24,000 bases of DNA from an uncultured bacterium (GCA_963802195.1 CAWDHP010000003.1:19456-43455); one strand, 5' to 3'. Counted from the first letter of the stretch, positions 2,704 to 21,556 are shown. Program-made: numbers and translations. The notes: a model not told the origin generated them from the sequence alone.

Positions 2704-3186
2704 TTATGGTTCCCAATATTCCCCGCTTCTTAATATTTTTCCTACTCCTATCTTACCATCAAATACAATAATTTCCACTCTTGCCTCTCGAAGCATCGCA
2801 AAAGCAAAGTCTATATCCTCTTGCCAGTGTCCATTCCTATCTAAAGCTTGTTTGTGGATCACTAGCTTTTTAATGCCAGCTTGAATTATAGCTTGAGCAC
2901 AATCACTACATGTTGCCCAGGGACAAACCATAGTGAGTCCTTCTGTTTTTATTCCTAATCTAGCGGCAGAGTAAATAACATTCCTTTCGGCATGAACGCT
3001 GTATTTGTATCTTATGGCTTTATCGTTTTGCCTTTCTTCTGTTTCAGCTATCCCGTTAGGAAAATTATTAGTCTCTGAAAGAATAATATTTTGATTATCG
3101 TCAATTAAAATAGCCGCATTCTGCGTTGATATATTAGTGCTTTTTTGAGCTTTTTCGTATGCTATTTTAAGGAGTTGTTGCCACAT
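2704..3186 (-). CDS. CMP/dCMP deaminase (deoxycytidylate deaminase-like)
   Basis: HAERNVIY (H-A-E) and CPWATCSDCAQAI (PCxxC) zinc-ligand motifs of the cytidine/deoxycytidylate deaminase fold. Confidence 0.8.
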   Translation of the reverse strand: MWQQLLKIAYEKAQKSTNISTQNAAILIDDNQNIILSETNNFPNGIAETEERQNDKAIRYKYSVHAERNVIYSAARLGIKTEGLTMVCPWATCSDCAQAIIQAGIKKLVIHKQALDRNGHWQEDIDFAFAMLREARVEIIVFDGKIGVGKILRSGEYWEP

Positions 3187-3380: not shown

Positions 3381-3418
3381 AATTGTAAGTAAAAAAAGAA
3401 GGAGATTTTTGATATCGA
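3381..3418 (-). terminator. intrinsic terminator after the radical SAM gene
   Basis: On the minus strand, AGGAGAT (3418-3412) pairs with ATCTCCT (3396-3390) and is followed by a TTCTTTTTTT tract. The same ATCTCCTTCTTTTTT tail recurs at 8769-8784. Confidence 0.6.
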
Positions 3419-3454
3419 AGTATCTCCTATGATTAACTTCGGAAGCTTAAAGCT

Positions 3455-4702
3455 TCAACCCTTAACTGTTTCCCACCCTTTTGGCAATGGCCAGAAAAGA
3501 TGGTTTTTCGCGTAAAATTTGAGATCGGCTAACGTGGGCGCGATGCGGTGGTTATTGAATAAGACCGATGTCTCAAATTCACAACCAACAGTTATTGCGA
3601 CATCTTCAGTCGCGACCTCATTTGGAGGTAACTCGACGAGGTACCCTTCCTCGGTCACGCGAATAGACAAAGGATGGTATCCCAACCATGTGAGGTATTT
3701 TTCAATCTCATCTGGATTAACTTTCCTCCACTGGCCGAGTTCTCCTGAGCGGGATAGGTTGTTGCGATTATATGCAATCGGCATACTGAACTCATCCCGA
3801 TACAATGTACCTGTATGCCGATGAACCCTAACATCGTACATGATTGAGGCACAGAGGACCGCCTTTTCAGCTTTTTCAGACAGCCAGTTTTTCATTTTGT
3901 AATACTGGTGTCCGCCCGGACTTGATTCTTCGTTTTGGTTGCCGTCGAGGAATCCTGTCTCGCGAAGCTTGTCGTTTTCGGGAGTAATGCCGAGATTTCC
4001 GATACTGCAACCACGATAGGTCAGAAATCTGATTCCCATCATTGCCAAATCGAAAATCGTTTCGACGCCCTTCATAACGTTATTATCGTTAAGTGGTCCA
4101 AGCATGACGGAAATCCGTCTTGGGGAAATTCCGGCATCGAGAAGCATCTGAAGACCCTCCAGTTGCTGTGGCGACTTAATCGGACTTCCCCTGAACTCTG
4201 GGCTGTCAGGCGTGATTGTAGTGCTAAACACTACACGAGGGTCATCCCCCCACGCTTCAAGCTGTTTTTGCCCGAATGGGGCACGGTGCAGAACGAAGAC
4301 TGGACTTTTGTGCGGAAATATCCGTAAAAATTCCGTAATTTCATTTACCTGCATGCTTCCGTCAGACCGAGCAGCCAGCATGATAATATCTCGGCCAGCC
4401 TTGAATAATTTGGACTGTTCAAGGAATCGTACCGCCTGTCTTGGCGTTGCAATCTTGCGGAGGCCTTTTCTGCCCTTCCCGATAGTATCAACAGAATTGT
4501 TGATCCATCGGTAATAACAGAAGTCGCACCCGATGGTGCATCCCATGATAAGGTCTCCATCCCAAGTGTACCGCCGTTTATAAAACGGAGCGGGGCAGAC
4601 TTGGCATTCTCCTTTCCATTCTGGCGGGGTGCCACCTAATAAAAGGTGTTCTCCGTTGACTATATCTGCCGCCCTTGCGGCTGAGAAATCTTCAAAAGAC
4701 AT
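3455..4702 (-). CDS. radical SAM enzyme, SplB/COG1533-like (spore-photoproduct-lyase-like family)
   Basis: MGCTIGCDFCYYRW contains CxxxCxxC in the GCxxGCxxCYxR context typical of SplB-like radical SAM proteins. AGGAGG lies 6 nt upstream of the ATG. The start abuts the upstream stop (TAAATG). Confidence 0.75.
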   Translation of the reverse strand: MSFEDFSAARAADIVNGEHLLLGGTPPEWKGECQVCPAPFYKRRYTWDGDLIMGCTIGCDFCYYRWINNSVDTIGKGRKGLRKIATPRQAVRFLEQSKLFKAGRDIIMLAARSDGSMQVNEITEFLRIFPHKSPVFVLHRAPFGQKQLEAWGDDPRVVFSTTITPDSPEFRGSPIKSPQQLEGLQMLLDAGISPRRISVMLGPLNDNNVMKGVETIFDLAMMGIRFLTYRGCSIGNLGITPENDKLRETGFLDGNQNEESSPGGHQYYKMKNWLSEKAEKAVLCASIMYDVRVHRHTGTLYRDEFSMPIAYNRNNLSRSGELGQWRKVNPDEIEKYLTWLGYHPLSIRVTEEGYLVELPPNEVATEDVAITVGCEFETSVLFNNHRIAPTLADLKFYAKNHLFWPLPKGWETVKG

Positions 4703-6457
4703 TTATACCTCCTGTCCCAAAATTGGGGCAATTTCTTTTTTCAATTTACGACCAAGACTAATGGTCTTCTTTGGAGTGATTCCGAACGTACGCATATAGG
4801 TCAAGCGACTAAGGCGTTCATCGGAATTATCCTTGCGGCCGTCTTTGCCGTAAAGAGCAGAAAGTCCATCATCAAGCATTTGGGCTGCGACACCATCCTG
4901 GTACGCAGCTTTGCAAATACTTTCAGAGCATCCTAATGCTTCAGCAATCATCAGCCGGAAAGAAGCCTCCTTCATCACTACCTTGCCCCAGAGTTCTGTC
5001 TGAGTCAGCTCGGTACTGAATTTAGGATTTTCTATTTCTACTTCAAGTCGAGCTGCGAGAATTACTTCACGAACGCGCTCCTCGAAAGTGGTTATACCGA
5101 GTTCGACGGCGATATTTCTTGCTCTTCCAAGGTCGTATGCCGCCTGCTCAATAGTTTGCCATACTCCGTTGATTACCCAGAACGCTGGCGCATAGTCACG
5201 GACTTCGTCCTCATCAATGAGGTCGTCCATGATTTTGAATGCCTTGCGCAGGTGTTCAACAAGCTGGCAGATTTCCTCAACATCCTTTTCGTTCCGTTTT
5301 CCAAGAACAGAGAGTTTTCTCACTTTCTTGGCGTAACTTCCGGAAGTCGGGACATCTATCCATGGCCGCGGGTTTTCAAGACTCTTTTGGTAGAAAGAGT
5401 CGATTGCCCCGACTTTTTCTAACCAATCCATTCTATTAACCTCCACTTTTGTAGCTCCGCGATTCTTTGCCACTTGCACTGCAGCTTGCTGCACAAGCTT
5501 CTTCGTGGCCTCGACTGATTTAGAGGCGAATATCCACGATAATACTTCGTGCATTCCGGAAATTAACCTGTCAGGAAGATTGATGTGGCAAGTATTACCT
5601 TCGTATTTTACCGAACACCCTGTGGTCTTGACGGTAAAGTCAGCAAAGCTCACCACATCAAGGGCGCCGATTTTGCGTAAGAGCTCCAGACGTTCCGAAT
5701 CAACAGAATCGTCAAAGTCCCCGCGCCTCTCAGCTTCCCTCTGTCGTTCATCTTCATCTCTCCTAACAGAGATAACGATTACTGGCCGTTGTAAAGCATA
5801 GCTCGCGTATATGATTTGTTCGCGAGACTTGATGCCATCAACAACCATGAACGGCGAATCGTCATTTACCGAAGAAACAAACCTGCGGGCGACAACAATT
5901 TTGTCTTTCGCCTCAACCTCTTCGGTGAAGCACTGGACATTGGTCCAATTCATTTCGCCATAACGGGATTCTATCTCCTGCTTTACATAGTCTCCCCATT
6001 TGTAGACGGAGAATCCGTCCATCTGGGAAAAAATGTTCCGCAGAAGTGTCTTCCCTGATGCGGGCAGTCCGACCAGTGCAATCATGTACTTATCAATGTG
6101 ATAAGTATCTTGCTCTGATACACTTTCTTTCGGCACAATCCCCTCTTTCTTCAAGAGGTAATTTTGATGTCGATACGCCAGCAATGTTTTTTCGTTGCCG
6201 ACATACTTTACCGGCCCCTTAATACCTAAACTCCTTAACGATTTCTCGACATGGAGCTGGGTTAAGGCCGTGGTCAAATTCCGGTCAAAGACAAGAATCT
6301 CTCCGTACTTCTTTTTTTGTGGAAAGTTCCACCAGGTTACTTCCCTCTGATCCATGCGAGAGAAGTCTGCAATTGCAACCTCCCATTCGGGAGAAAGAAT
6401 ATTGCAATTCAATAACTCCACGCCTGACTTGGCGATTAAAACCGCAAGGGTTTTCAT
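4703..6457 (-). CDS. fusion protein: unknown N-domain, P-loop nucleotide kinase (adenylate/dephospho-CoA-kinase-like) and a divergent polyprenyl-synthase-like C-domain
   Basis: Walker A in IALVGLPASGKT. The block VVDGIKSREQ...RRDEDERQREAERRGDFDD resembles small archaeal-type nucleotide kinases. The C-terminal MDDLIDEDEVRDYAPAFW (DDxxDxxxxR...P) and GVAAQMLDDGLSALYGKDGRKDNSDE resemble the two Asp-rich motifs of trans-prenyl synthases, with the second degenerate. I prefer the ATG at 6457 (GAGG 7 nt upstream) over the TTG at 6499 used by the ORF track. Confidence 0.6.
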   Translation of the reverse strand: MKTLAVLIAKSGVELLNCNILSPEWEVAIADFSRMDQREVTWWNFPQKKKYGEILVFDRNLTTALTQLHVEKSLRSLGIKGPVKYVGNEKTLLAYRHQNYLLKKEGIVPKESVSEQDTYHIDKYMIALVGLPASGKTLLRNIFSQMDGFSVYKWGDYVKQEIESRYGEMNWTNVQCFTEEVEAKDKIVVARRFVSSVNDDSPFMVVDGIKSREQIIYASYALQRPVIVISVRRDEDERQREAERRGDFDDSVDSERLELLRKIGALDVVSFADFTVKTTGCSVKYEGNTCHINLPDRLISGMHEVLSWIFASKSVEATKKLVQQAAVQVAKNRGATKVEVNRMDWLEKVGAIDSFYQKSLENPRPWIDVPTSGSYAKKVRKLSVLGKRNEKDVEEICQLVEHLRKAFKIMDDLIDEDEVRDYAPAFWVINGVWQTIEQAAYDLGRARNIAVELGITTFEERVREVILAARLEVEIENPKFSTELTQTELWGKVVMKEASFRLMIAEALGCSESICKAAYQDGVAAQMLDDGLSALYGKDGRKDNSDERLSRLTYMRTFGITPKKTISLGRKLKKEIAPILGQEV

Positions 6458-7148
6458 TCTAAACCTCGTAATCGTAAGTTGCCATGTTTCAGGCAACAAA
6501 CTAAAGATGTAAATCTCCAGATTGTTACCTGAAACTCTACCTATTTAATTTTCAAACAGCATCCTCCTGCTTCTCTCGGCTCCAATCTCTCCATTGGAAG
6601 CCGAGAGTATAGCAAGGAGGTTTCTGGAAACGAAGCGGGTTAAACTTCCTTTCCAGCCAATCTCCCTACTAGAAGACGGCAAACGATATTAGCCAGTTGA
6701 TAATCTTTTCATTTATACTCTCTCCAGTATGATGACGATTACCTAACATTCTTGCTAAAAGCTAATATCGGACAGGCAGTAATTGGTGTTTTACTGCTTT
6801 AGGACCTTAAGTCTATCACCATAATAGACTTTCGTTCCTTTGATTTTTAACAAAGAGCTATTCTTCTCGAAATTCTTCCGAGAAGATTTTTAAAGATTTT
6901 ATCTTTAACATATCTTTCCGCAAAAAAACGGCTGAGAAATCTCTTCAAAGGACAGACTCAAGATAGAATCCTTCCTTAAAAGAGATCTCCCAGCCGTTCG
7001 AATAAACAACTAGTATCTATTACTCCATTCGGAATGCAGACAGACCTCAGCCTGATTCCTTATCCCTTTCGGGAAAGAAGTAACGGGTCCATTATTTAAC
7101 CTCGCGGACGAGCGAAGAACTAACATCTAATTTAATGAACTCACTTAC
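6458..7148 (-). ncRNA. large structured leader RNA, copy A (paralogue of 10445-11180)
   Basis: About 690 nt between the promoter at 7155-7183 and the kinase-fusion ATG, with no conserved ORF. Hairpins are dense, including a long hairpin at 6929-6996 followed by U7. The core 6614-6846 aligns with 10575-10785 and shows compensatory stem changes. The 5' end is inferred from the promoter only. Confidence 0.5.
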
Positions 7149-7154
7149 ACGATA

Positions 7155-7183
7155 ACTATATACTACTATCTGCTTCTTGTCAA
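7155..7183 (-). promoter_or_regulatory. sigma70-type promoter driving leader A and the kinase-radical SAM operon
   Basis: Minus strand reads TTGACA (7183-7178), a 17-nt spacer, then TATAGT (7160-7155). Confidence 0.65.
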
Positions 7184-7190
7184 CCCCCAA

Positions 7191-7199
7191 TTATCCACA
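7191..7199 (+). promoter_or_regulatory. perfect DnaA-box 9-mer TTATCCACA, 7 nt upstream of the -35 element
   Basis: Exact match to the consensus TTATCCACA. The same 9-mer occurs at the same spacing at 11223-11231 and 11338-11346. Confidence 0.45.
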
Positions 7200-7200
7200 T

Positions 7201-7253
7201 CCTGCTTTCGTCCTTTTGGACTCATCAGCTCGGACACACATCCGAGGAGCAAG
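7201..7253 (-). ncRNA. type III hammerhead ribozyme (HHR-1)
   Basis: Minus strand reads CUUGC-UC/CUCGGA-UGUGUG-UCCGAG-CUGAUGA-GUCC-AAAA-GGAC-GAAA-GCAGG. The full CUGAUGA...GAAA core is present. Stems I and II are closed and stem III is open (CUUGC/GCAGG). Predicted cleavage is after C7247. Confidence 0.85.
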
Positions 7254-7317
7254 TGTAATTTATTTTTTTAAAAAATTACTAAAAAATTAACCCTACTATA
7301 CTGCCCAAGTAATTGGC

Positions 7318-8523
7318 TTAAACATTTTTTACTGTAAATCCAGCATTTTTGAATCCCTCAGCCAAGGACGTTGGTTCATCCTTAATCTGAATATCGTTAA
7401 GACCGAAGATCTTTTCAATCTCGACCTTGGATGGAGTAATGGGTGTGATTCCGTCCCATGGCTCCGTGCGAATGCCGTTGGCTACCCACCGTACATAGTG
7501 GTGGATTCCTCCGGCATTAGCGAGTACATAGGATGTTATTTCTCCATCCTTGTACTCTATCCACGCAGAGTGCCAATCGGGCGCTTCAACGATAGCTAGA
7601 ATACTCTCGCTGTTGAATGGTCTCTCGCAGGATTCCTTTATTCGGGTGATACCCGATTCAGAAATTTTCTCGAACCGGTAGCGCTTGCCACCACCCGGAC
7701 CGATGCAGAGAGATATTAATGCTTTCGTGCCAGGAATCAGTGTGCCAGCTTGCACACTGCTGACGCCACCGATCTTATCGCCCATGACGACGGGAATGGC
7801 AATGCCCCAGTTTTTTACGGTTTGCTCTATCGGTTGCCACTGTGTGAAGTGGTTAACCAGAACATTCATTTCGGGGCTGATTGCTTCCTCAAGTTCTTCT
7901 GCTAGTTTAATCGCGGACTGAACGTCCTCGTGAAGCTCTCCAGTAAACTGCTTTACAACTTCCGTTACCTCGGGATTATCATCAGTGGCGATTGTTTGGC
8001 AGAGTTCTTCGCGGGTCATTGCGACTGCGTTGAAACTCCTAGTCACAATGAGGTAGCGCTGACCGTAGCCTTTGTATGATCCCCCGCAGATGTTCACGAT
8101 GAACACCGATGGAGATTCAATATGCCACAGCTCATCAGTTCCGCCACCAATTCTACCGGCATCGCCGAAGGCATAAGAACCAGTGACTAACAGTTTAGCT
8201 TCGCCACCCTTGTGGACGACATTACCCTCTGTCCCACGGGTGTACGTTCCATACGTGTTTATTCGTATGAGTACACCGCGTTGGTTGGGGTTGCTTTTGG
8301 TCAATATGCAATGCTTCCTTTCCTCCCCAAAGAGGAAATATCCGACATCATCGGGTCCGGACGGTTGTTGTCCGGAACGATTAGAAATTCGGACTTCTTC
8401 AAGCCACCGGCCTCGGCCAGCCTCTCCCAAAGAGAACGGAATCTCCTGGGTCCTTCCGTGCATGTCAATTATTTTCATTCCTTTCACTCCATTCTTGCCC
8501 CTAAAGCGTATCTTCGTGGGCAT
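7318..8523 (-). CDS. hypothetical protein (386-401 aa), no recognisable family
   Basis: Long intact ORF in GC-rich cargo. The start is either ATG 8523 (no SD) or ATG 8478 (GGAGTGAAAGGA upstream). Gly-rich loops are present (GDAGRIGGGTD, CGGSYKGYG, GPGGGKRY). Confidence 0.6.
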   Translation of the reverse strand: MPTKIRFRGKNGVKGMKIIDMHGRTQEIPFSLGEAGRGRWLEEVRISNRSGQQPSGPDDVGYFLFGEERKHCILTKSNPNQRGVLIRINTYGTYTRGTEGNVVHKGGEAKLLVTGSYAFGDAGRIGGGTDELWHIESPSVFIVNICGGSYKGYGQRYLIVTRSFNAVAMTREELCQTIATDDNPEVTEVVKQFTGELHEDVQSAIKLAEELEEAISPEMNVLVNHFTQWQPIEQTVKNWGIAIPVVMGDKIGGVSSVQAGTLIPGTKALISLCIGPGGGKRYRFEKISESGITRIKESCERPFNSESILAIVEAPDWHSAWIEYKDGEITSYVLANAGGIHHYVRWVANGIRTEPWDGITPITPSKVEIEKIFGLNDIQIKDEPTSLAEGFKNAGFTVKNV

Positions 8524-8768
8524 GAATTATGTTTGCTCATTAAGAGCGTACAATTTTAAAATATTATTTAAGACTGTGCGCTCTCAACAAACTCTATTTA
8601 AAGAACTATTATCAATTAAATCAGCAGTGAACCGTAAAGCAATTAGCGAGGGGTTTGAATGTATTATATTCTGGAGAGAGATTAGAATATATCCAATACC
8701 TCTCCTGCTTTACGGATCGCTACTGATTGTTTCTCAATTCTGAATCCACTTTTATTAAAATGAACTCG

Positions 8769-8816
8769 GAAAAAAGAAGGAGATAATGTTTAAACATTTA
8801 ACGGGTCTCCATCTCC
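8769..8816 (-). terminator. intrinsic terminator after the P-loop NTPase gene
   Basis: On the minus strand, GGAGAT (8816-8811) pairs with ATCTCC (8784-8779). The inner palindrome AATGTTTAAACATT is followed by TTCTTTTTTC. The 5' arm overlaps the stop codon. Confidence 0.5.
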
Positions 8817-9403
8817 GTTATCAGCCAATCTGCAAACTGACTAATAATACCCTGATAGGGATCCTTTGGACCGTCTCGGTCCAAATTACAGATAATCCCT
8901 CGAATGGGTTCGGCAGAAAAATCCGCCGAAGATCCTACATTGTTATCAAGCGTCCCATCCGCCCGCTTGATAAGCCGAGACTCAAATAATGCGAGAGTCT
9001 CACACCCTTCTTCTTTGGCAAAATTCTGCCAAAGCTCATTCTCTTCTTCTTTCGAAGAAAGAAGAATAAGGTGCGTTGACCGCTTGAGAATCTCGGCATT
9101 CTCAGCAGTCCGTCTTCCCCCAAGATCTAGGAGGACCAAGGGAAACGATTTTCCCAAGTTCTCAATGGACTTCAGAGTGAAACCCATGAATTCTTGAGAA
9201 AATGCTCCTTTCCTCCGAATTTCAGAGACAAGGCGCGGGTCAGTCTCTGCTGACCACATACCTTCTCCATCGGGACATGCCCTTTGGAGAAAGACTCTCG
9301 TTGCCTTCCTTGCCAAAAGCTGACGATATAGCTCGGCAAGGAAGACTGACTTCCCTGAATGTGGAGGCCCTCCCACGGCCACCACCATTTTTTTAGTGGC
9401 CAT
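8798..9403 (-). CDS. P-loop NTPase of the type found fused to Csx3 (Csx3-associated AAA/kinase-like)
   Basis: Walker A in VAVGGPPHSGKS and Walker B in LVLLDLGG. AAGGAGG SD. The gene lies directly downstream of the Csx3 gene. The link to Csx3-AAA fusions is recalled from the literature, not searched. Confidence 0.65.
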   Translation of the reverse strand: MATKKMVVAVGGPPHSGKSVFLAELYRQLLARKATRVFLQRACPDGEGMWSAETDPRLVSEIRRKGAFSQEFMGFTLKSIENLGKSFPLVLLDLGGRRTAENAEILKRSTHLILLSSKEEENELWQNFAKEEGCETLALFESRLIKRADGTLDNNVGSSADFSAEPIRGIICNLDRDGPKDPYQGIISQFADWLITEMETR

Positions 9404-9462
9404 AGTAGCCTCCTTTAGTGCTTTTTATACTTTTGCACAAAAAGTTTTTTCATTCCCTGATT

Positions 9463-9765
9463 TTACTCAGGGAACGGTATTACATTTCCGACCTGCTGGT
9501 CGGGAGAGTGGGTGGCAACGACCACTGCGCCAAGGCGCGGATCGCGAACTGCCAACCACGGTGTGGCATGGGCAGCATGCACTAACATGCTGTATAGCCA
9601 TACCGGACCCCGTCCGTCAAGGACGATCGGGGTTTCTCCACCGAGCTCACCGAGCTCAGTGACCGCTTCCTGAGATTCCTGGGGAGTTGTTACTCCGCCC
9701 GGAATCTCGAATCCTACCACCCGGATGCCGTTAGCATCACGGGTGGAAAATACTGGTTTCGACAT
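9463..9765 (-). CDS. csx3: Csx3 (Crn3) family protein, distant-CARF ring-nuclease fold
   Basis: LDGRGPVWLYSMLVHAAHATPWLAVRDPRLGAVVVATHSP closely matches the block I recall from A. fulgidus Csx3 (SGRGPIWLHCFLAHKYHHTPFVAVYDPRLGAVVVQSHS). I prefer ATG 9765 (GGGAGG 9 nt upstream) over the TTG at 9792. Confidence 0.7.
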   Translation of the reverse strand: MSKPVFSTRDANGIRVVGFEIPGGVTTPQESQEAVTELGELGGETPIVLDGRGPVWLYSMLVHAAHATPWLAVRDPRLGAVVVATHSPDQQVGNVIPFPE

Positions 9766-9954
9766 TTTCCATACCTCCCGTTTCACCTTCAACGGGGACT
9801 TTGCTCTGCATCATCAAAAGGTGACTTTGATGATGACTCCCTTCATGGGAAGCGAGCTGACTACTTTTATAAATAATCAATTCGCTTTCCATAAAGCAAG
9901 AGTTAAATATTCAAACCTATTTTCCTTTTAATGAGCAACTTATATTTTACAATT

Positions 9955-10007
9955 CTGCTTTTCGTCCTTTTGGACTCATCAGCTCGGATACACATCCGAG
10001 AAAGCAA
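9955..10007 (-). ncRNA. type III hammerhead ribozyme (HHR-2)
   Basis: Minus strand reads UUGCU-UU/CUCGGA-UGUGUA-UCCGAG-CUGAUGA-GUCC-AAAA-GGAC-GAAA-AGCAG. The core is identical to HHR-1. Stem III is UUGCU/AGCAG. Predicted cleavage is after U10001. Confidence 0.85.
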
Positions 10008-10060
10008 TTTGAAGAGGAAGTTTTATATAGCGAGCCCTCTTCGTACCCGCTTTACCCTGG

Positions 10061-10444
10061 TTACCTTCCAGTCGGGAAAATAACCATTTTCCAGGGATCC
10101 TCCCTGTCTGAAACATAGACAGGACGGAATCCCTTCTCCTCTACGACCTTCTGAAAGGCCGGGAGGAGAAACCCTGCCTCTGGCGGGAAGTCCATTAGGA
10201 CCTCCCTCGTTGCCTCATCGGCAAAGAGGAAGGCCTCCTTCATGGCCCTTCCCAGCCAATCGCCGAAACGCTCTGCGCGCTCGACGATTTGTTGCCCTTC
10301 CACCACGTCCATGTGGCGGAAGAGAATCATTTCCTCCAGTTCCACCCGCAGGTGGACTGGAACTTCAGTCAGCGAAAATCGCTGGTGAAGTTTCTCCGCT
10401 CCCTCACGGGGGAGCGGGCTTACCCTTAAGATACTCTTCTGCAT
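10061..10444 (-). CDS. hypothetical protein (127 aa)
   Basis: GC-rich intact ORF. I prefer ATG 10444 (AAGGGGAG about 10 nt upstream) over the TTG at 10495. No recognisable motif. Confidence 0.5.
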   Translation of the reverse strand: MQKSILRVSPLPREGAEKLHQRFSLTEVPVHLRVELEEMILFRHMDVVEGQQIVERAERFGDWLGRAMKEAFLFADEATREVLMDFPPEAGFLLPAFQKVVEEKGFRPVYVSDREDPWKMVIFPTGR

Positions 10445-11180
10445 AATAATGACTCCCCTTCTTTTTCGGTAGAAGTAAACCGGTGCTTTTTCCAAGCAAC
10501 AATCTAGAGATATAAGTCTACAGATTGTTACTTAGAATGATTTTAAAATGAACCACTGACACTCCCTATCTCGTAAGGAGGTTTCTGGAAACGAAGTGGG
10601 TTAGGCCTCTTTTCCAGCCGATCTCCTTACTAGAAGAACGGTATACGATTTTTTAACCTTAGGCCATAACTCTCTCCAGACTTTCTTTGTCGCCTAAAAT
10701 TAATATATCGGACAGGCAAGCAATTGGTTTTTGCTGCTTTAGGACCTTGACCTATCACCATAATAGATCGCGTTCCTTTGATTTTGGTTTAAAGAACTAT
10801 ATCTTCTTTCTTGCGAAAGAAGGTGATGGATATGAGTCTTGTATTGTTTTAGCTCATTTCCATAACTTTCCTTCGTAATATATTGTAAAAGAGGGGGGAG
10901 ATTCAGAGTCCTAGGTGTAAACCCAAGGTTTAGGACGCTGTTCGGCAAGTCTCCCCGCTGCCGCTTCCGAATGGGTCTTCGGAAGAAAGTGGTAAAGATG
11001 ATACATATTCATCTCCACAACTTTCTTTCAAAAGAAAAAGGGGTAACAAATGTTGGGATACTGCATGAAAAGAGTACCTCAACACTTATTACCCCATAAC
11101 GGAATTAAAAGCGTTTATTGGCAATGCCTCTCTCCTTGCATTGACTTGGCTTATTTAATTTTTAATAACTTCATCCTAAC
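10445..11180 (-). ncRNA. large structured leader RNA, copy B (paralogue of 6458-7148)
   Basis: About 735 nt between the promoter at 11187-11215 and the ORF127 ATG. The core 10575-10785 is homologous to 6614-6846. Two long hairpins are followed by U-tracts (about 11036-11095 and 10895-10956). ORF-track ORFs in this region are not conserved in copy A. Confidence 0.5.
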
Positions 11181-11186
11181 AACTAT

Positions 11187-11215
11187 ACTATGACATACTA
11201 TCTATTTTCTGTCAA
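11187..11215 (-). promoter_or_regulatory. sigma70-type promoter P1 for leader B
   Basis: Minus strand reads TTGACA (11215-11210), a 17-nt spacer, then CATAGT (11192-11187). Confidence 0.55.
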
Positions 11216-11222
11216 GCTCCAG

Positions 11223-11231
11223 TTATCCACA
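11223..11231 (+). promoter_or_regulatory. perfect DnaA-box 9-mer TTATCCACA, 7 nt upstream of the P1 -35 element
   Basis: Exact 9-mer at the same spacing as at 7191-7199. Confidence 0.45.
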
Positions 11232-11301
11232 CCCTGATTTTTCTATGAATAACAAGGCTTTTCTTCTTTTCTGCCTCTCCTTTCTTTATCCTTACACCTA
11301 T

Positions 11302-11330
11302 ACCATAGCATAGTAGTATAATTATGTCAA
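11302..11330 (-). promoter_or_regulatory. sigma70-type promoter P2 (tandem with P1)
   Basis: Minus strand reads TTGACA (11330-11325), a 17-nt spacer, then TATGGT (11307-11302). Confidence 0.5.
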
Positions 11331-11337
11331 CACTCAG

Positions 11338-11346
11338 TTATCCACA
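11338..11346 (+). promoter_or_regulatory. perfect DnaA-box 9-mer TTATCCACA, 7 nt upstream of the P2 -35 element
   Basis: Exact 9-mer at the same spacing as the other two copies. Confidence 0.45.
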
Positions 11347-11451
11347 CCCTAGCTATCAAGTTTTTCAGTCTCCACTTTGTCTACATATGGGGTCTGGACT
11401 CCCTAGAGCTATTGCGTCATCCTTGTCCTTGAGATAATAAATAAAAACAAT

Positions 11452-12759
11452 ATGGAACGAATAATAAAAAGTATAAGTCAGTCCCCTATTCTTGATGCTC
11501 CAATCAAGTATTGTCTCTATGCTAGGAAATCGACTGAAGCGGAGGACAAGCAAGCTCTTTCAATAGAATCTCAAGTAAAGGAAATGTTATCTCTAGCCGA
11601 AAGAGACAACTTAGATATAGTTGAAATTAAAAGAGAATCGCATTCTTCAAAGGAAGTCGGACAAAGAGTAGTTTTCAACGAAATGATTAAAGAAATAAGA
11701 GAAGGAAAATATAATGGAATATTAACATGGGCGCCAGATAGGTTAAGCAGAAATGCTGGGGATCTAGGATCGATAGTAGATTTGATGGATCAGAAGCTTC
11801 TTATCGAAATAAGAACATACGGACAGAAGTTTACCAATAATCCAAATGAGAAGTTTCTTTTAATGATATTAGGCTCTCAAGCCAAACTAGAGAATGACAA
11901 TAAAGCAGTCAATGTTAAGCGAGGATTAAGGACTAGATGCGAAATGGGATTAAGACCAGGAGTTGCACCGACTGGCTATCTGAATGAAAAGCATGTTGAT
12001 AAGAAATGCCAATGCAGAATAGATTCTAAAAGAGCACCTATTATTAAACAGATGTTTGAAAAGGTGGCCAACGAGCAATGGAGCGGCAGGAAGATATTCC
12101 GATGGCTGATTGATATTGGATTCAAGACTAAAACCGGCAAGCCTTTAGTTCTTGCCAATATTTATCTCATCTTAAGAAATCCTTTTTATTATGGAGAATT
12201 TGAATACCCAATTAAAAGCGGTAATTGGTATATTGGTAAACATGTTCCGATTATAAATAAAGAGCTGTTTGATAAAGTGCAAATGACCCTCGGTGATAAT
12301 TTCATACCCAAAACAGAAAGCAAGGAATTCGCTTTTACCAAATTAATCAAATGCGGATATTGCGGATCAGGAATATCAGCTGATGAAAAGTTCAGAAAAT
12401 TAAAAAACGGCGGTACTAACCGTCATGTCTATTATTTTTGTACCAAGGCGAGAAATATTGATTGCAAAAATCAGCCGATAGATGAGGCAAACCTAATAAA
12501 CGAACTAGCAGAACTTGTAGACAAGATTGATTTAGATGAACTAGGGATAAGGGATAAAATTGAAAAAGAATTAATGAGATTTAATAAATTTAGAATCGGA
12601 GTGCTTGGGCATAAAAAAGAAGTAAGCAATTCAGATATTGATATCCGTAACTATGCTAAGTATTTATTAAAAGAAGGAACAATTACCGAAAAGCGAGAAC
12701 TCCTATCATTTTTAAAAAGTAAACTGGTATTAAAAGACAGAAAGATTATTCTTGGATAA
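11452..12759 (+). CDS. large serine recombinase (resolvase/invertase N-domain, recombinase domain and zinc ribbon)
   Basis: YCLYARKSTEAEDKQALSIESQ carries the catalytic Ser motif. Also present are GILTWAPDRLSRN and a C-terminal CGYCG...YYFC zinc-ribbon-like motif. The gene is AT-rich (line 12181-12240 has 17/60 G+C) and has no SD, so it is host-like, unlike the cargo. Confidence 0.85.
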   Translation: MERIIKSISQSPILDAPIKYCLYARKSTEAEDKQALSIESQVKEMLSLAERDNLDIVEIKRESHSSKEVGQRVVFNEMIKEIREGKYNGILTWAPDRLSRNAGDLGSIVDLMDQKLLIEIRTYGQKFTNNPNEKFLLMILGSQAKLENDNKAVNVKRGLRTRCEMGLRPGVAPTGYLNEKHVDKKCQCRIDSKRAPIIKQMFEKVANEQWSGRKIFRWLIDIGFKTKTGKPLVLANIYLILRNPFYYGEFEYPIKSGNWYIGKHVPIINKELFDKVQMTLGDNFIPKTESKEFAFTKLIKCGYCGSGISADEKFRKLKNGGTNRHVYYFCTKARNIDCKNQPIDEANLINELAELVDKIDLDELGIRDKIEKELMRFNKFRIGVLGHKKEVSNSDIDIRNYAKYLLKEGTITEKRELLSFLKSKLVLKDRKIILG

Positions 12760-12799: not shown

Positions 12800-12837
12800 A
12801 TGTATGCATCTCAGTCACCTGACTTAGCATAAGACGG

Positions 12838-12908
12838 CTGCGGGACTAGGATTCGGACCTAGATTGGGCGAGTCAAAGTCGCCAGTCCTACCGTTAGACG
12901 ATCCCGCA
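12838..12908 (-). tRNA. tRNA-Gln (anticodon UUG)
   Basis: Manual cloverleaf: acceptor UGCGGGA/UCCCGCA with the U1-A72 pair typical of bacterial tRNA-Gln; D arm GUCU-AACGGUA-GGAC; anticodon arm GGCGA-CUUUGAC-UCGCC; T arm CUAGG-UCCGAAU-CCUAG; discriminator G. CCA is not encoded. The T-loop reads UCC instead of the usual UUC. Confidence 0.8.
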
Positions 12909-17024: not shown

Positions 17025-18480
17025 ATGAAAATATATAATACTTTAACTAAAAAGAAAGAAGAATTTAAATCAATTAAAGACAAAGAAGTCGGAATCTACA
17101 CTTGTGGACCGACTGTCTACTGGTTTGCTCATATCGGCAACATGAGAGCCTACCTTTTTGAAGACACTTTAAAGAGAGTTTTAATATACAATGGATACAA
17201 GGTTAAGCATGTGATGAACATTACTGACGTTGGACATTTAACTTCTGATTCTGATTCAGGAGAAGACAAATTAGAGAAAGGAGCTAGGAAAGAAAGAAAA
17301 TCAGTTTGGGAGATTGCCCAGTTCTATACAGACTTCTTCAAGAAAGATTTAAAATCTTTAAATATTATTGATCCAACTATTTGGGTAAAAGCAACTGACA
17401 CTATCCAAGAGCAGATAGATTTGATTAAAGAGATGGAAAAGAAAGGATTCACTTACATCACTAGCGATGGAGTATACTTTGATACTTCTAAATTAGAGAA
17501 ATATGGAAGACTTATGGGGAGAAAGTGAAAGAACAGAAATGAAAGGCAGGATTGAAGAAGTAAAAGAAAAAAGAAACAAAGCCGACTTCGCTCTATGGAA
17601 GTTCAGTCCTAAAGATGAAAAGAGACAAATGGAATGGGAATCTCCTTGGGGAGTTGGTTTCCCTGGCTGGCACACTGAGTGTGTGGTGATGAGTGTAAAC
17701 AATCTAGGGATACCTTTTGATATCCATTGTGGAGGAATTGATCATATCTTTATCCACCACACTAATGAAATCGCCCAGGCTGAAGCCGTATACAACAAGC
17801 CAATGGCTAATTATTGGATGCACGGAGAATTCCTTAATTTAAAAGATGGGAAGATGTCTAAATCAGCAGGAACAATCATTACTCTTGAAACATTAAAAGA
17901 AAAAGGAGTCAGTCCCCTTGCCTATCGCTATCTATGTTTGAATACTCACTACCGAACTAAATTGTTTTTTAGTGATGAGAGCCTTGAGTTCGCTGAAACA
18001 AGCCTAAGCAAGCTTTACGAAAAAACAGTTGAACTATCTAGAAGTGAAAAGACACCCCATTCAAAGAAATATGAGGAATACAAAAAGAATTTCCTTGAAT
18101 TCATTAATGATGATTTAAATATTCCTTCTGCCCTAGCCTTAACTTGGGATATGATTAAGGACAAGAATATTACTGATTCAGAGAAATATGATTTGTTAAT
18201 TGATTTTGATAATGTCTTTGGTTTGAAACTTGCTTCAATTAAATCAGAAGATAATCTAACTGATTCAAAGTATATTATCAAAACAGAAAAAGATGGCATT
18301 CCTGTTTGGACTAGCGATACTAGTATTGTTCCTGAAGACATAATGAAACTAGTTGAAGCAAGAAACGAAGCAAGGAAGAACAAGGAATGGGATAAATCAG
18401 ATGAGGCAAGAAAAGAGATAGAAGAGAAAGGATGGCAAGTAGAAGATTCAGGAGAGAAGACAGTCATTAAGAAGAAATAA
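17025..18480 (+). pseudogene. cysS: cysteinyl-tRNA synthetase, interrupted by a single-base frameshift at the GGGG run 17516-17519
   Basis: The N-part has [15 protein letters not shown] (HIGH-type motif). The C-part has RNKADFALWKF, PGWHTEC and KMSKS. Two ORFs (17025-17528 and 17503-18480) are in frames 0 and +1. Deleting one G restores ...[20 protein letters not shown]... Confidence 0.85.
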
Positions 18481-20142: not shown

Positions 20143-20171
20143 TTGACGTTTAATTTGTTGTTTGCTACATT
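20143..20171 (+). promoter_or_regulatory. dnaB promoter of leaderless type
   Basis: TTGACG (20143-20148), a 17-nt spacer, then TACATT (20166-20171), followed by 7 nt before the ATG at 20179. Confidence 0.5.
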
Positions 20172-20178
20172 ATACTTA

Positions 20179-21556
20179 ATGAGTAGTGAAAATACAAATC
20201 TAAAAGTGCCCCCACAGGATATAGAAGCGGAAAAAAGCCTTTTAGGCTCTTTAATGCTTGATAAGGAAGCAATTACTAAAGTTGCTGATATTTTGCATGC
20301 TGAAGACTTTTACAAGAGAAATCACCAATACATCTATCAGGTGGTTGAAGATTTGTTTTCTCGTGGAGAGCCAATTGATTTAATTTCAGTTTCATCAAAG
20401 CTTAAAGAAAGAAATCAATTAGAGAATATTGGAGGAACCGCTTACCTAACTGAACTAATTAATACTGTTCCAACTGCCAGCCACGTAATGACCTATGCCA
20501 AGATTGTCCAAAAGAAAAGAATCTTAAGAGATTTAATCTCTGCTGGAACAGAAATATCTTTAATGGGCTATGAAGAAGAAAATGAATCTGATGATCTTTT
20601 GGATTCAGCTGAAAGAAGAATCTTCAGTATCACTCAAAAGAATCTAACTCAATCATTCTTACCAATCAAACCTTTCCTAGAAGAAGCTTTTGAAAGAATA
20701 GAAAGAATATCTAAACAGAAAGGAGCTTTAAGAGGAACTTCAACTGGATTTAACGGATTAGATTCCCTTCTCTCTGGTTTGCAGAATTCTGATTTAATTA
20801 TTCTTAGCTGCTAGGCCTTCAATGGGAAAATCAAGTTTAGCACTAGATATTGCCAAGAATGTTGCTTTAAAAGAAAAGAAGCCAGTTGGTATCTTCTCAT
20901 TAGAGATGAGCAAGGACCAATTAATTGATAGATTAATTAGTTCTGAATCAAATATTGACTCATGGAAGTTAAGACAAGGAATGCTTTCAACTGAAGGAGA
21001 TCAGAATGACTTTGTTTGTATCCAGCACGCCTTAGGCACTCTTTCTGAGGCTCCCATCTTCATTGATGACGCTTCTAGCTGTAGTGTTTTACAAATGAGA
21101 GCCATGGCCAGAAGATTACAAGCTAGTCATGGATTAGGTTTGATTATCGTTGATTATTTACAATTGATTGAGCCAAGCAACAAGATAATCAATAGTGTTC
21201 AACAAATTACTGAAATATCAAGACAATTAAAAGGATTAGCTAGAGAATTGAATATTCCTGTTTTAGCTCTATCTCAATTATCAAGAGCAGTAGAACAAAG
21301 AACTCCCAAGATTCCTAGACTATCAGATTTGAGAGATTCTGGTTCAATTGAGCAAGACGCTGATGTTGTTCTATTCATTTACCGTGAAGATGTTTACCAA
21401 GAAGAAAGTCCTCGAAAAGGAGTTGCTGATATTATTATCGCTAAACACAGAAACGGTCCTATCGGCAGAGTAGAACTATTCTTTGATAAACAAAGAGCCT
21501 GCTTCAGAAATATTGAAACGGGTCGTGATGCTTTTGAGGGAGATATTGGATTCTAA
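20179..21556 (+). pseudogene. dnaB: replicative DNA helicase DnaB, interrupted by a single-base frameshift near 20806
   Basis: The N-part has PPQDIEAEKSLLGSLML. The reading ...SDLIILSC-stop switches to the +1 frame, giving AARPSMGKSSLALDIA (Walker A). Removing a20806 restores DLIILAARPSMGKS. The C-part has IIVDYLQL and SRQLKGLARELNIPVLALSQLSR. Confidence 0.85.

Follow-up and report, generated by a model that had tools for sequence, protein, structure and literature searches.

A radical SAM family strictly paired with a phosphoribosyltransferase-like, kinase and prenyl-synthase-like partner on mobile elements of bacteria and archaea: candidate core of a nucleotide-centred conflict cassette

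What might a radical SAM (S-adenosylmethionine) enzyme produce together with a protein that joins a nucleotide kinase to a prenyl-synthase-like domain? The question is raised by two adjoining genes in a stretch of 24,000 nucleotides from an uncultured bacterium (GCA_963802195.1, CAWDHP010000003.1:19456-43455), referred to below as the window. Much new antiviral chemistry has come from radical SAM enzymes that modify nucleotides, and a preliminary description of the window had suggested a nucleotide-derived, possibly prenylated or pyrophosphate-linked small molecule as the product of the pair. Our analysis leads us to propose that the two genes form the core of a conflict cassette which is nucleotide-centred, horizontally mobile and so far undescribed; we put the probability of this statement as a whole at about 45%.

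The partnership was surveyed in 108 loci drawn from genomes and metagenomes; at 90% identity of the radical SAM protein, they fall into 49 clusters. Clusters were considered informative if they contained at least 2.2 kb of flanking DNA on both sides of the radical SAM gene. In all 25 informative clusters, kinase and isoprenyl-diphosphate-synthase-like (IPPS-like) domains are encoded directly next to this gene, while the seven clusters in which no partner is visible are all cut off by a contig edge. The partnership is obligatory, the opposite of the lack of any co-location that the preliminary description had named as evidence against it. It is this conservation across clusters, and not the fact that the genes abut, which places the pairing beyond chance. 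Together with the two gene orders and several independent fusions found, the obligatory adjacency is strong evidence that the proteins serve one pathway.

Five architectures occur (genes separated by slashes; PRT, phosphoribosyltransferase-like; KIN, kinase; rSAM, radical SAM): PRT-KIN / IPPS / rSAM, PRT-KIN-IPPS / rSAM, rSAM / PRT-KIN-IPPS, Fic-rSAM / PRT-KIN-IPPS and Fic-PRT-KIN / IPPS / rSAM. The commonest among the relatives consists of three overlapping genes, for a PRT-kinase of ~350 residues, an IPPS-like protein of ~244 residues and the radical SAM enzyme. The first two genes are fused in the window and in four close clusters. In the closest relative, locus L016 (radical SAM protein 94% identical), a 2-nt difference in frame keeps these two genes apart. 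The PRT-kinase and IPPS-like frames overlap in L016 and L017; they are in frame in the window and in L006. The latter is fused and has Leu in place of the former internal Met, which argues that the fused form is real and evolves as a fusion. The fusion seen in the window is specific to its sublineage.

The reverse order, with the radical SAM gene preceding that of the PRT-kinase-IPPS protein, was found in Fervidicola ferrireducens, a Moorellales metagenome-assembled genome (MAG), Caldatribacterium, Pyrobaculum oguniense and Sulfolobales-like elements. A Fic domain may be fused to the radical SAM enzyme (P0184; L028, 617-2503; L070-L081) or to the PRT-kinase (P0045), or be encoded by a separate gene (L001, 1-473). 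These fusions hint that some versions of the cassette include the modification of a protein or a reaction with a diphosphate substrate. The Fic domains are divergent and have HPFADGCGRTAK in place of HxFx[DE]GNGRxxR. The signature residues of every catalytic domain are conserved throughout the family.

As the matches of single window sequences to Pfam are all below threshold (AAA_18, 5e-5; polyprenyl_synt, 6e-4; Radical_SAM, 8e-4), we built family alignments and structure models. Hidden Markov models constructed locally for the phosphoribosyltransferase-like (PRTase-like), kinase and IPPS-like domains all match the open reading frame (ORF) of the fusion gene, and the AlphaFold2 (AF2) model of the complete 584-residue protein has a mean predicted local distance difference test score (pLDDT) of 91. 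The motifs quoted in the preliminary description (GLPASGKT, RRGDFDD, DDLIDEDEVR, QMLDDGLS, GKDGRKDNSDE and CTIGCDFC) all reside in the proteins to which it had assigned them.

The C-terminal domain of the fusion protein, which is also encoded as a separate gene in the commonest architecture, was compared with structures at the level of both profiles and models. Its profile matches 131 PDB chains at E-values up to 1 (best E 1.7e-7), and nearly all of the 60 matches listed are trans-prenyl or terpene synthases. In a Foldseek search, the best matches for the fusion protein are yeast and human geranylgeranyl diphosphate synthase (GGPPS; E 5e-6, target-normalised TM-score 0.55-0.59), and 49 of the 50 matches listed are GGPPS or other trans-prenyltransferases (target-normalised TM-score 0.5-0.59). 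By profile and by its predicted all-alpha isoprenoid synthase fold, the domain is a trans-prenyl-synthase homologue. The preliminary description had allowed for a different fold, and both searches decide for the one it had proposed. The protein of the window scores 19.5 bits against PF00348, below the gathering score of 27 (E 6e-4); the same family is the precomputed domain in most of the listed stand-alone IPPS-like homologues.

The catalytic residues of this domain were compared in 30 sequences, including Firmicute and archaeal members. In the first Asp-rich motif, DDxxD..R (DDLIDEDEVR; residues 411-420, positions 5198-5227), Asp-411, Asp-412, Asp-415 and Arg-420 are invariant. The same holds for Glu-472 and Glu-476 and, within the KEASFR segment, for Glu-497, Phe-500 and Arg-501, and Lys-496 of this segment is nearly invariant. 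The second Asp-rich motif (QMLDDGLS; residues 526-533, positions 4859-4882) is degenerate, as the preliminary description had recognized: Gln-526, Asp-529 and Asp-530 are invariant, and the third Asp is replaced by Ser, Ala or Gly. In the block which follows (GKDGRKDNSDE, residues 537-547), Lys-538, Gly-540, Arg-541, Asp-546 and, beyond it, Arg-551 are invariant.

The middle domain, predicted earlier to be a small P-loop nucleotide kinase, has held up as such. Its profile matches 3LW7 and 3H0K, AdkA-like/UPF0200 proteins of Sulfolobus solfataricus, end to end with an E-value of 1.7e-8, in addition to the AAA_18 match mentioned above. Its motifs are the P-loop GLPASGKT (residues 130-137, positions 6047-6070), VVDGIKSREQ and the lid RRGDFDD (residues 244-250). 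Gly and Lys of the P-loop, a D-G-x-K segment and an R..DD....R lid are invariant across the family. With Walker A, a segment for the nucleoside monophosphate (NMP) site and an Arg/Asp lid recognizable in the alignment, the domain is assigned to the NMP-kinase fold. The small alpha/beta insert which separates it from the IPPS-like domain is shorter in distant fused homologues.

The N-terminal domain had been described as unknown and about 130 residues long. It is rather ~110 residues long and carries, besides LIAKSG, a motif resembling the loop that binds 5-phosphoribosyl 1-diphosphate (PRPP). This motif reads ILVFDRNLTTALT in the window and VMLVDRNVTTGRT, VVLIDSNIVTGKT or VVLVDSTSASGIT in distant homologues, following the PRPP-binding-loop pattern except that it has one acidic residue (VFDRNLTTALT; VDRNVTTGRT in Fervidicola). 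In type I PRTases, the loop has four hydrophobic and two acidic residues followed by xx(T/S)(T/S)GxT. The profile of the domain has 15 matches to PDB sequences, all of them proteins of PRTase fold for which the alignment centres on the loop (PRPP synthetase, purine PRT, UMPS, PurF, UPRT and PyrR), but they are weak (E 0.026-1.1). Weak matches to PRTase_2, Pribosyltran and UPRTase of Pfam are also obtained with distant members. A full type I PRTase core with hood takes ~170 residues or more, whereas the domain has about 95-110 and lacks the hood. From these sequence comparisons we call it PRTase-like and do not regard it as a proven PRTase. The domain never occurs unfused to the kinase, and it is followed by a low-confidence linker (pLDDT 59 at residues 111-120 of the AF2 model).

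The second protein contains the cluster motif CTIGCDFC (CxxxCxxC) at residues 55-62 (positions 4517-4540). Cys-55, Cys-59 and Cys-62 are invariant in 50 sequences and are the only invariant cysteines of the family, which argues against SPASM/twitch or another auxiliary cluster. A core (about residues 40-265) is followed by a family-specific C-terminal domain (residues 266-415), the 150 residues of which include many invariant Arg, Lys, Asn, Tyr and Thr. In a Foldseek search of the PDB with the AF2 model (pLDDT 95), all matches at E-values below 0.03 have a radical SAM or radical SAM-like Fe-S fold (probability 0.89-1.0). Those to SkfB, NifB, SuiB, LipA and RlmN combine high probability with low TM-scores of 0.3-0.4. 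From the cluster motif and the predicted partial TIM-barrel, the protein is a member of the radical SAM superfamily, even though the sequence of the window reaches only 20.0 bits against PF04055 (gathering score 29.5), a score which a few relatives pass. The isoelectric points (pI) of the protein and of its C-terminal domain are neutral (6.6-6.9), which is consistent with a small-molecule substrate.

Within the superfamily, this is a tiny isolated family. Comparison with PDB sequences, both with the single sequence and with a 50-sequence profile, gave no real match. NCBIfam yielded only rSAM_mob_pairA, matched over 17 residues at the cluster motif, PHROGs only a generic 'kinase' for the core proteins, and the viral structures of BFVD only generic radical SAM matches. 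The enzyme is not viperin-like, as had been noted from its sequence: there was no match to the pVip models of PADLOC at E-values up to 0.1 and no viperin among the best 50 Foldseek matches in the PDB. The placement in an SplB/COG1533 context fared less well, being at best faint. No spore photoproduct lyase (SPL) structure is among the best 50 Foldseek matches, and no SPL match was obtained from Pfam or NCBIfam for the protein of the window. Among 1.84 billion representatives, there is one remote SPL/PA0069-like match (P0228, E 2.5e-4), which is restricted to the core (~170 residues); most other remote matches belong to no Pfam family. A second, SPL-like radical SAM protein in the Pyrobaculum locus matches the family weakly.

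The family is also rare. Among 5.8 billion proteins, clusters number 45 for the fusion protein, 69 for the radical SAM protein and 70 for the C-terminal domain, and an exhaustive profile search of the 1.84 billion representatives gave 57 matches. The radical SAM family occurs in 11-12 of 185,579 species representatives. A housekeeping tRNA or rRNA modifier, which the preliminary description had considered as the contrary case, was rejected on account of this distribution. The bacterial carriers are Minisyncoccales, Saccharibacteria, Doudnabacteria, Smithella and another Deltaproteobacterium, Fervidicola and Caldatribacterium, and the archaeal ones Pacearchaeota, Thermoplasmata and Pyrobaculum. 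The spread covers the candidate phyla radiation (CPR), DPANN, Deltaproteobacteria, Firmicutes, Atribacteria and Crenarchaeota.

In the window, the two genes are tightly arranged. The stop codon of the fusion gene abuts the ATG of the radical SAM gene (CATTTA at 4700-4705 of the plus strand, TAAATG on the minus strand), and GGAGG precedes this ATG by 5-9 nt, inside the 3' end of the fusion gene. The fusion ORF starts with an ATG preceded by GAGG; an extension to a TTG at 6499 is possible. A promoter-like site and a terminator-like hairpin bracket both genes, so that they are predicted to form one transcription unit with a leader of ~700 nt. The hairpin has a 15-nt loop and was not called by an automated scan. 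The succession of promoter, leader, fusion gene, radical SAM gene and terminator shows the layout expected of a single operon; together with the abutting genes and their conserved adjacency, this bears out the earlier proposal. The positions of the features are listed in Table 1.

Table 1. Features of the cassette, its island and the adjacent DNA (positions in the window).
Feature	Position	Strand	Basis
Fusion gene, 584 residues (PRTase-like, NMP-kinase-like, small alpha/beta insert, IPPS-like)	4703-6457	-	ORF, translation
N-terminal PRTase-like domain, residues 1-110, with LIAKSG and PRPP-loop-like ILVFDRNLTTALT	6128-6457	-	family alignment
AdkA/UPF0200-like NMP-kinase domain, residues 123-270	5648-6091	-	alignment invariants, PDB profile match
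Small alpha/beta insert between kinase and IPPS-like domain, residues 271-341	5435-5647	-	AF2 secondary structure
Compact trans-isoprenyl-diphosphate-synthase-like domain, residues 342-584 (~243 residues)	4706-5434	-	alignment, PDB profile, Foldseek
Radical SAM gene, 415 residues	3455-4702	-	ORF, translation
Promoter-like site, TTGACA-17-TATAGT	7155-7183	-	11/12 consensus matches
Non-coding leader, ~700 nt, promoter to fusion start codon	6458-7154	-	conserved stretch
Terminator-like hairpin past the radical SAM stop codon, 7 bp (AGGAGAT...ATCTCCT), then T-run	3391-3428	-	sequence inspection
GC-rich integrative island with the cassette	3391-12759	.	composition, recombinase, tRNA
Type III hammerhead ribozyme, closely preceding the promoter of the cassette	7200-7254	-	Rfam RF00008, 34.1 bits, full model
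Second type III hammerhead	9954-10006	-	intact CUGAUGA/GAAA core
P-loop 'AAA' protein, Csx3-AAA type, split form	8798-9403	-	PADLOC Csx3/Csx3-AAA models, 2.6e-38 to 3.7e-32
Csx3 (Crn3-family) gene	9463-9792	-	Pfam PF09620, 8.7e-23
Large serine recombinase, island end, 36% GC	11452-12759	+	Pfam matches
tRNA-Gln beside the serine recombinase	12836-12908		
dCMP/cytidine deaminase, 160 residues, immediately downstream of the cassette	2704-3186	-	host GC content

The promoter block TTGACA-17-TATAGT occurs three times in the island (7137-7203, 11169-11235 and 11284-11350), and the promoter-like site of the cassette is kept in L006, L016 and L017. The leader has a mean column identity of 90% in an alignment of four loci, compared with 79% for the whole aligned stretch, which is mostly coding DNA. 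Its proximal 320 nt recur upstream of the gene for a 144-residue protein (repeats at 10490-10750). A scan of the leader for riboswitches with Rfam matched no family apart from the hammerhead. The leader is a candidate structured regulatory RNA.

The cassette resides in a mobile element. GC content is ~47-50% between ~3.45 and 11 kb and ~30-36% in the surroundings, the cassette being the last unit of the GC-rich stretch. The same island is present in a Minisyncoccales MAG (L016), with recombinase and radical SAM protein 94% identical and the same flanking deaminase, which points to an integrative element of CPR bacteria and makes a related CPR bacterium the probable source of the window. Other carriers encode RepA, DnaB, TnpB and an orphan N6/N4 methyltransferase; SSB, ParM and a methyltransferase; or Cas4, dCTP deaminase, C5 methyltransferase and a protein with a match (4e-169) to a viral PHROG. 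By their gene content, the carriers are islands and plasmid- or virus-like elements of unrelated bacteria and archaea. At the protein level, the cassettes of contigs binned as Minisyncoccales, Smithella and Pacearchaeota (L016, L017, L018 and L032) are 75-94% identical to that of the window, reflecting either a very recent cross-domain transfer or a shared mobile element that was mis-binned.

Proteins of 401 residues (7318-8523, minus strand) and 144 residues (10061-10495, minus strand) encoded in the island have no match in Pfam, PADLOC, PHROG or PDB. The gene for the former is missing from the otherwise identical island in L016. PDB searches with the AAA protein and the 401-residue protein likewise gave no match.

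Hammerhead ribozymes are a further trait of these islands. The copy next to the cassette promoter scores below the Rfam gathering score (48.5). Besides the two in the window, copies were found in L006 (2457-2507), L016 (4606-4656, 7447-7497), L017 (2618-2668), L018 (7080-7130, 14460-14510), L034 (2917-2967, 7747-7797) and L040 (9961-10011). In the 11 copies from seven related islands, which were chosen by a search that demanded pairing, all 15 positions pair in three stems, the core is invariant and a NUH cleavage site is present. Compensatory double changes occur at 12 of the 15 pairs in these copies. The hammerheads lie on the coding strand between transcription units, each cassette-proximal copy just upstream of the conserved promoter. 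As those of the window flank the block of Csx3, AAA and 401-residue protein genes, self-cleavage would separate three mRNA segments.

The DNA next to the island appears to belong to the host. The deaminase gene was considered as a third gene of the operon and rejected; it is counted as host flank because of its host-like GC content and because a 78%-identical copy lies just beyond the island in L016. The protein partly matches the deaminase portion of anti-phage dCTP deaminase models and is probably an ordinary ComEB-like housekeeping enzyme. Further away, overlapping genes for a HEPN protein and a minimal nucleotidyltransferase (MNT; 689-1147 and 1144-1686, both on the minus strand) form a typical toxin-antitoxin module. 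Cysteinyl-tRNA synthetase is encoded in two overlapping ORFs on the plus strand (17025-17528 and 17503-18480, covering tRNA-synt_1e positions 2-145 and 150-299), so that the gene may be truly split, or a frameshift or sequencing error may have divided it. A DnaB ORF (20143-20814, plus strand) stops after the N-domain with the first 25 profile positions of the C-domain and is followed by another ORF (20822-21556, plus strand), so the gene may be split or interrupted.

Genes that recur beside the cassette were counted in 28 well-flanked clusters (8 kb or more of flanking DNA). Csx3 is near the cassette in eight and AAA in nine of them, and among all 49 clusters, Csx3 and/or its AAA partner occurs within 9 kb in 14, in both gene orders. 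Csx3 is a ring nuclease for cyclic tetra-adenylate (cA4), and Csx3-AAA is a known type III accessory for which a function has not been explained (PMC7371418, PMC6546367). Both parts may accompany the cassette, as a pair or in fused form, and do so in many other loci. The Csx3 and AAA genes of the window correspond to the split halves of this accessory; the window contains no cas genes, nor does any of the annotated 20-kb neighbourhoods. Other recurrent neighbours are Fic, a 588-residue DHH + HD-CE phosphohydrolase and HD_4-type proteins, and at least one accessory gene (Csx3, AAA, Fic or HD/DHH) is present in 11 of the 28 well-flanked clusters. Beyond these, only host flank genes such as that for AspRS recur. 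From their domain assignments, all recurrent neighbours appear to be nucleotide-centred.

Since the pairing is conserved across bacteria and archaea, the cassette probably makes a hitherto undescribed modified nucleotide for conflicts between element, host and viruses. The PRTase-like N-terminal domain and the apparently nucleotide-centred neighbours strengthen the earlier idea of a nucleotide product, which we consider slightly better than an even bet; a role in conflict is probable, and prenylation of the product is unlikely. In the mechanism we envisage, the PRTase-like domain would bind a 5-phosphoribosyl group or install one from PRPP, and the AdkA-like kinase would convert the resulting 5'-monophosphate to the diphosphate with ATP. 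The Mg2+/Asp-rich site of the IPPS-like domain (DDxxD..R and QxxDD) would then perform diphosphate chemistry, either a short prenyl transfer to the nucleotide or the ionization of a nucleotide-derived diphosphate. Prenyl transfer to a non-canonical acceptor is exemplified by ComQ. With its one [4Fe-4S] cluster, the radical SAM enzyme would act on the same phosphorylated small molecule by 5'-deoxyadenosyl-radical hydrogen abstraction or addition. The product would be a modified nucleotide, serving as antimetabolite, chain terminator or signal, and Csx3 ring nuclease, AAA kinase/transferase, Fic and HD/DHH proteins would sense, degrade or deploy nucleotide signals. The ring nuclease, phosphodiesterase-like proteins and orphan methyltransferases nearby would favour counter-defence by the element, while the precedents of prokaryotic viperins (pVips) and Ophion, by analogy, would speak for defence.

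A bolder version of this proposal, which we regard as rather doubtful, is that the chemistry is categorically new. A previously unseen class of nucleotide derivative would arise through Mg2+-dependent diphosphate chemistry of the IPPS-like domain, which would either prenylate a nucleotide or ionize a nucleotide-derived allylic or ribosyl diphosphate to whose formation the radical SAM enzyme contributes. A new immune or counter-immune pathway, tuned by Csx3, AAA, HD/DHH and Fic and carried by mobile elements of CPR, DPANN, thermophilic Firmicutes and Crenarchaeota, would have this derivative as its currency.

Several points weigh against a nucleotide-centred conflict cassette. IPPS-fold enzymes normally use isoprenoid diphosphates, not nucleotides. 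The PRTase-like domain is short, has one acidic loop residue and matches PRTases of the PDB only at E-values of 0.03-1; it may serve only for binding or regulation. In Pfam, both window proteins score below the gathering thresholds, and about 60% of the well-flanked loci are without any accessory gene. No model of PADLOC-DB v2 matches the fusion or the radical SAM protein at E-values up to 0.1, IMG/VR contains no matches to the radical SAM or IPPS-like profiles, and tblastn with the radical SAM protein found none among INPHARED phages and PLSDB plasmids. Enzymology or a phenotype is on record for no member of the family.

Other functions can be envisaged for the same set of domains. DNA methyltransferases adjoin the cassette in L010, L014 and L110, with dCTP deaminase/dUTPase in L014, and the faint profile affinity of the radical SAM protein is to a family acting on DNA, SPL/COG1533; both would suit hypermodification of the bases of the element's DNA or RNA, with the IPPS-like domain displacing a pyrophosphate installed on the base. 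In phages, the hypermodification of thymidine relies on a P-loop kinase, an enzyme that displaces pyrophosphate and, in some cases, a radical SAM protein. Pathways of this kind are described in PMC8989533. We nevertheless consider such a role of the cassette quite unlikely, as no DNA-binding domain was detected, the radical SAM protein and its C-terminal domain are neutral in pI (6.6-6.9), and the kinase resembles NMP kinases rather than 5-hydroxymethyldeoxyuridine DNA kinases (Pfam gave no aGPT-Pplase or HMUDK matches). Moreover, many carriers are ~9-kb islands without replication genes, so that a modification at the level of the nucleotide pool would also strike the host, and the phage collections (IMG/VR, INPHARED) are without matches. 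Plain isoprenoid metabolism would dispense with nucleotides altogether: the kinase would make a prenyl diphosphate from the monophosphate, the IPPS-like domain elongate it, and the radical SAM enzyme tailor a terpenoid- or quinone-type product. Enzymes of NMP-kinase fold can phosphorylate non-nucleotide monophosphates, an example being animal phosphomevalonate kinase. The IPPS-like domain has retained both Asp-rich motifs and the KxGR..D..R block, in addition to the PF00348 assignments of most listed stand-alone homologues. On the other hand, it is truncated (~243 residues), the third Asp has been lost from its second motif, the PRTase-like domain is invariably fused to the kinase, and no recurrent neighbour is a terpene cyclase, a UbiA-type transferase or a gene of the methylerythritol phosphate or mevalonate pathways, all being nucleotide-centred. 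We rank this below both hypermodification and the next possibility.

The frequency of Csx3 and/or AAA (14 of the 49 clusters, within 9 kb) and the described properties of these proteins would suit an ancillary effector of cyclic-oligoadenylate signalling, a type III CRISPR-like output or counter-measure under the control of Csx3 and AAA. This overlaps with the nucleotide-centred conflict cassette but puts Csx3 at the centre. The majority of loci, however, is without Csx3, the annotated neighbourhoods are without cas genes, and no CARF, SAVED or other sensor domain was found in the core proteins; we consider it improbable and place it after hypermodification. Maturation of a ribosomally synthesized and post-translationally modified peptide (RiPP), in which a peptide would be prenylated by the IPPS-like domain, in the manner of ComQ, and cross-linked by the radical SAM enzyme, is very improbable. 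The RiPP maturases SkfB and SuiB do top the Foldseek list of the radical SAM protein, and L014 and L015 have a 48-residue ORF separating the two genes. The TM-scores are only 0.3-0.4, though, the three invariant cysteines leave none for a SPASM/twitch cluster, the short ORF is not conserved (the genes mostly overlap or abut), and the PRTase-like and NMP-kinase domains would have no role.

If the product is a modified nucleotide, as the nucleotide-centred conflict cassette would have it, this would be, to our knowledge, the first recruitment of the isoprenoid-synthase fold into nucleotide chemistry, and an antimetabolite or signalling molecule of a new type could come from it. For the Csx3-AAA accessory proteins, long without an explanation, the cassette offers a lead to function. 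Mobile elements of CPR and DPANN organisms, groups about whose defence biology hardly anything is known, are seen to carry such systems with what are predicted to be hammerhead-processed transcription units.

No description of this domain combination was found in the literature, and searches for a kinase-prenyl-synthase fusion gave none either, in agreement with the preliminary description. The single parts have known counterparts. Like the trans-prenyl synthases (GGPPS and the farnesyl and octaprenyl diphosphate synthases, FPPS and OPPS), the IPPS-like domain is all-helical and has DDxxD..R, QxxDD and GK.GR..D....R, equivalent to GK....D....K; unlike them, it is ~60-100 residues shorter, lacks the third Asp and is fused to, or in an operon with, nucleotide-handling domains. 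The kinase shares P-loop, DG.K...Q segment and R.DD lid with the AdkA-like/UPF0200 proteins (SSO1041; 3H0K, 3LW7). These are stand-alone proteins of ~180 residues, whereas the kinase of the cassette sits between two other enzymatic domains. The island encodes both parts of the Csx3-AAA accessories, but as separate genes, without cas genes nearby and in a probable CPR host. The term 'radical SAM' is absent from the paper by Shah et al. (PMC6546367), so that no association of Csx3-AAA with radical SAM and IPPS-like proteins is reported there. The nearest named radical SAM family by remote profile matching is SPL/COG1533 (PA0069, Rv2578c, rSAM mobile pair B), the likeness being limited to the ~170-residue core.

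Closest in composition are two systems with radical SAM enzymes. Viperin makes chain terminators. Loci combining pVips with kinases resemble the cassette in pairing a radical SAM enzyme with an NMP-type kinase, in being rare, patchy and mobile, and in the presumed modified-nucleotide product. They differ in that the radical SAM enzyme of the cassette is not viperin-like and has its own C-terminal domain, and that its kinase is fused to PRTase-like and IPPS-like domains. Ophion, a validated anti-phage system for which modified nucleotides have been proposed, consists of the radical SAM protein OpnA, the PHP protein OpnB and the PRTase OpnC (bioRxiv 10.1101/2025.09.30.679545). In Ophion, too, a protein of phosphoribosyltransferase type accompanies a radical SAM enzyme. 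As far as its description goes, it is set apart by a viperin-related radical SAM enzyme, a full-size separate PRTase of the retron/ShosTA clade, a PHP phosphatase in place of kinase and IPPS-like domain, and its occurrence in Gammaproteobacteria. Neither system has an IPPS-like domain or the radical SAM family of the cassette. On sequence grounds and by analogy, we would group the cassette with the radical-SAM nucleotide-modifying conflict cassettes, which it extends by another, highly isolated family of radical SAM enzymes that is strictly coupled to a PRTase-like/NMP-kinase/prenyl-synthase-like enzyme.

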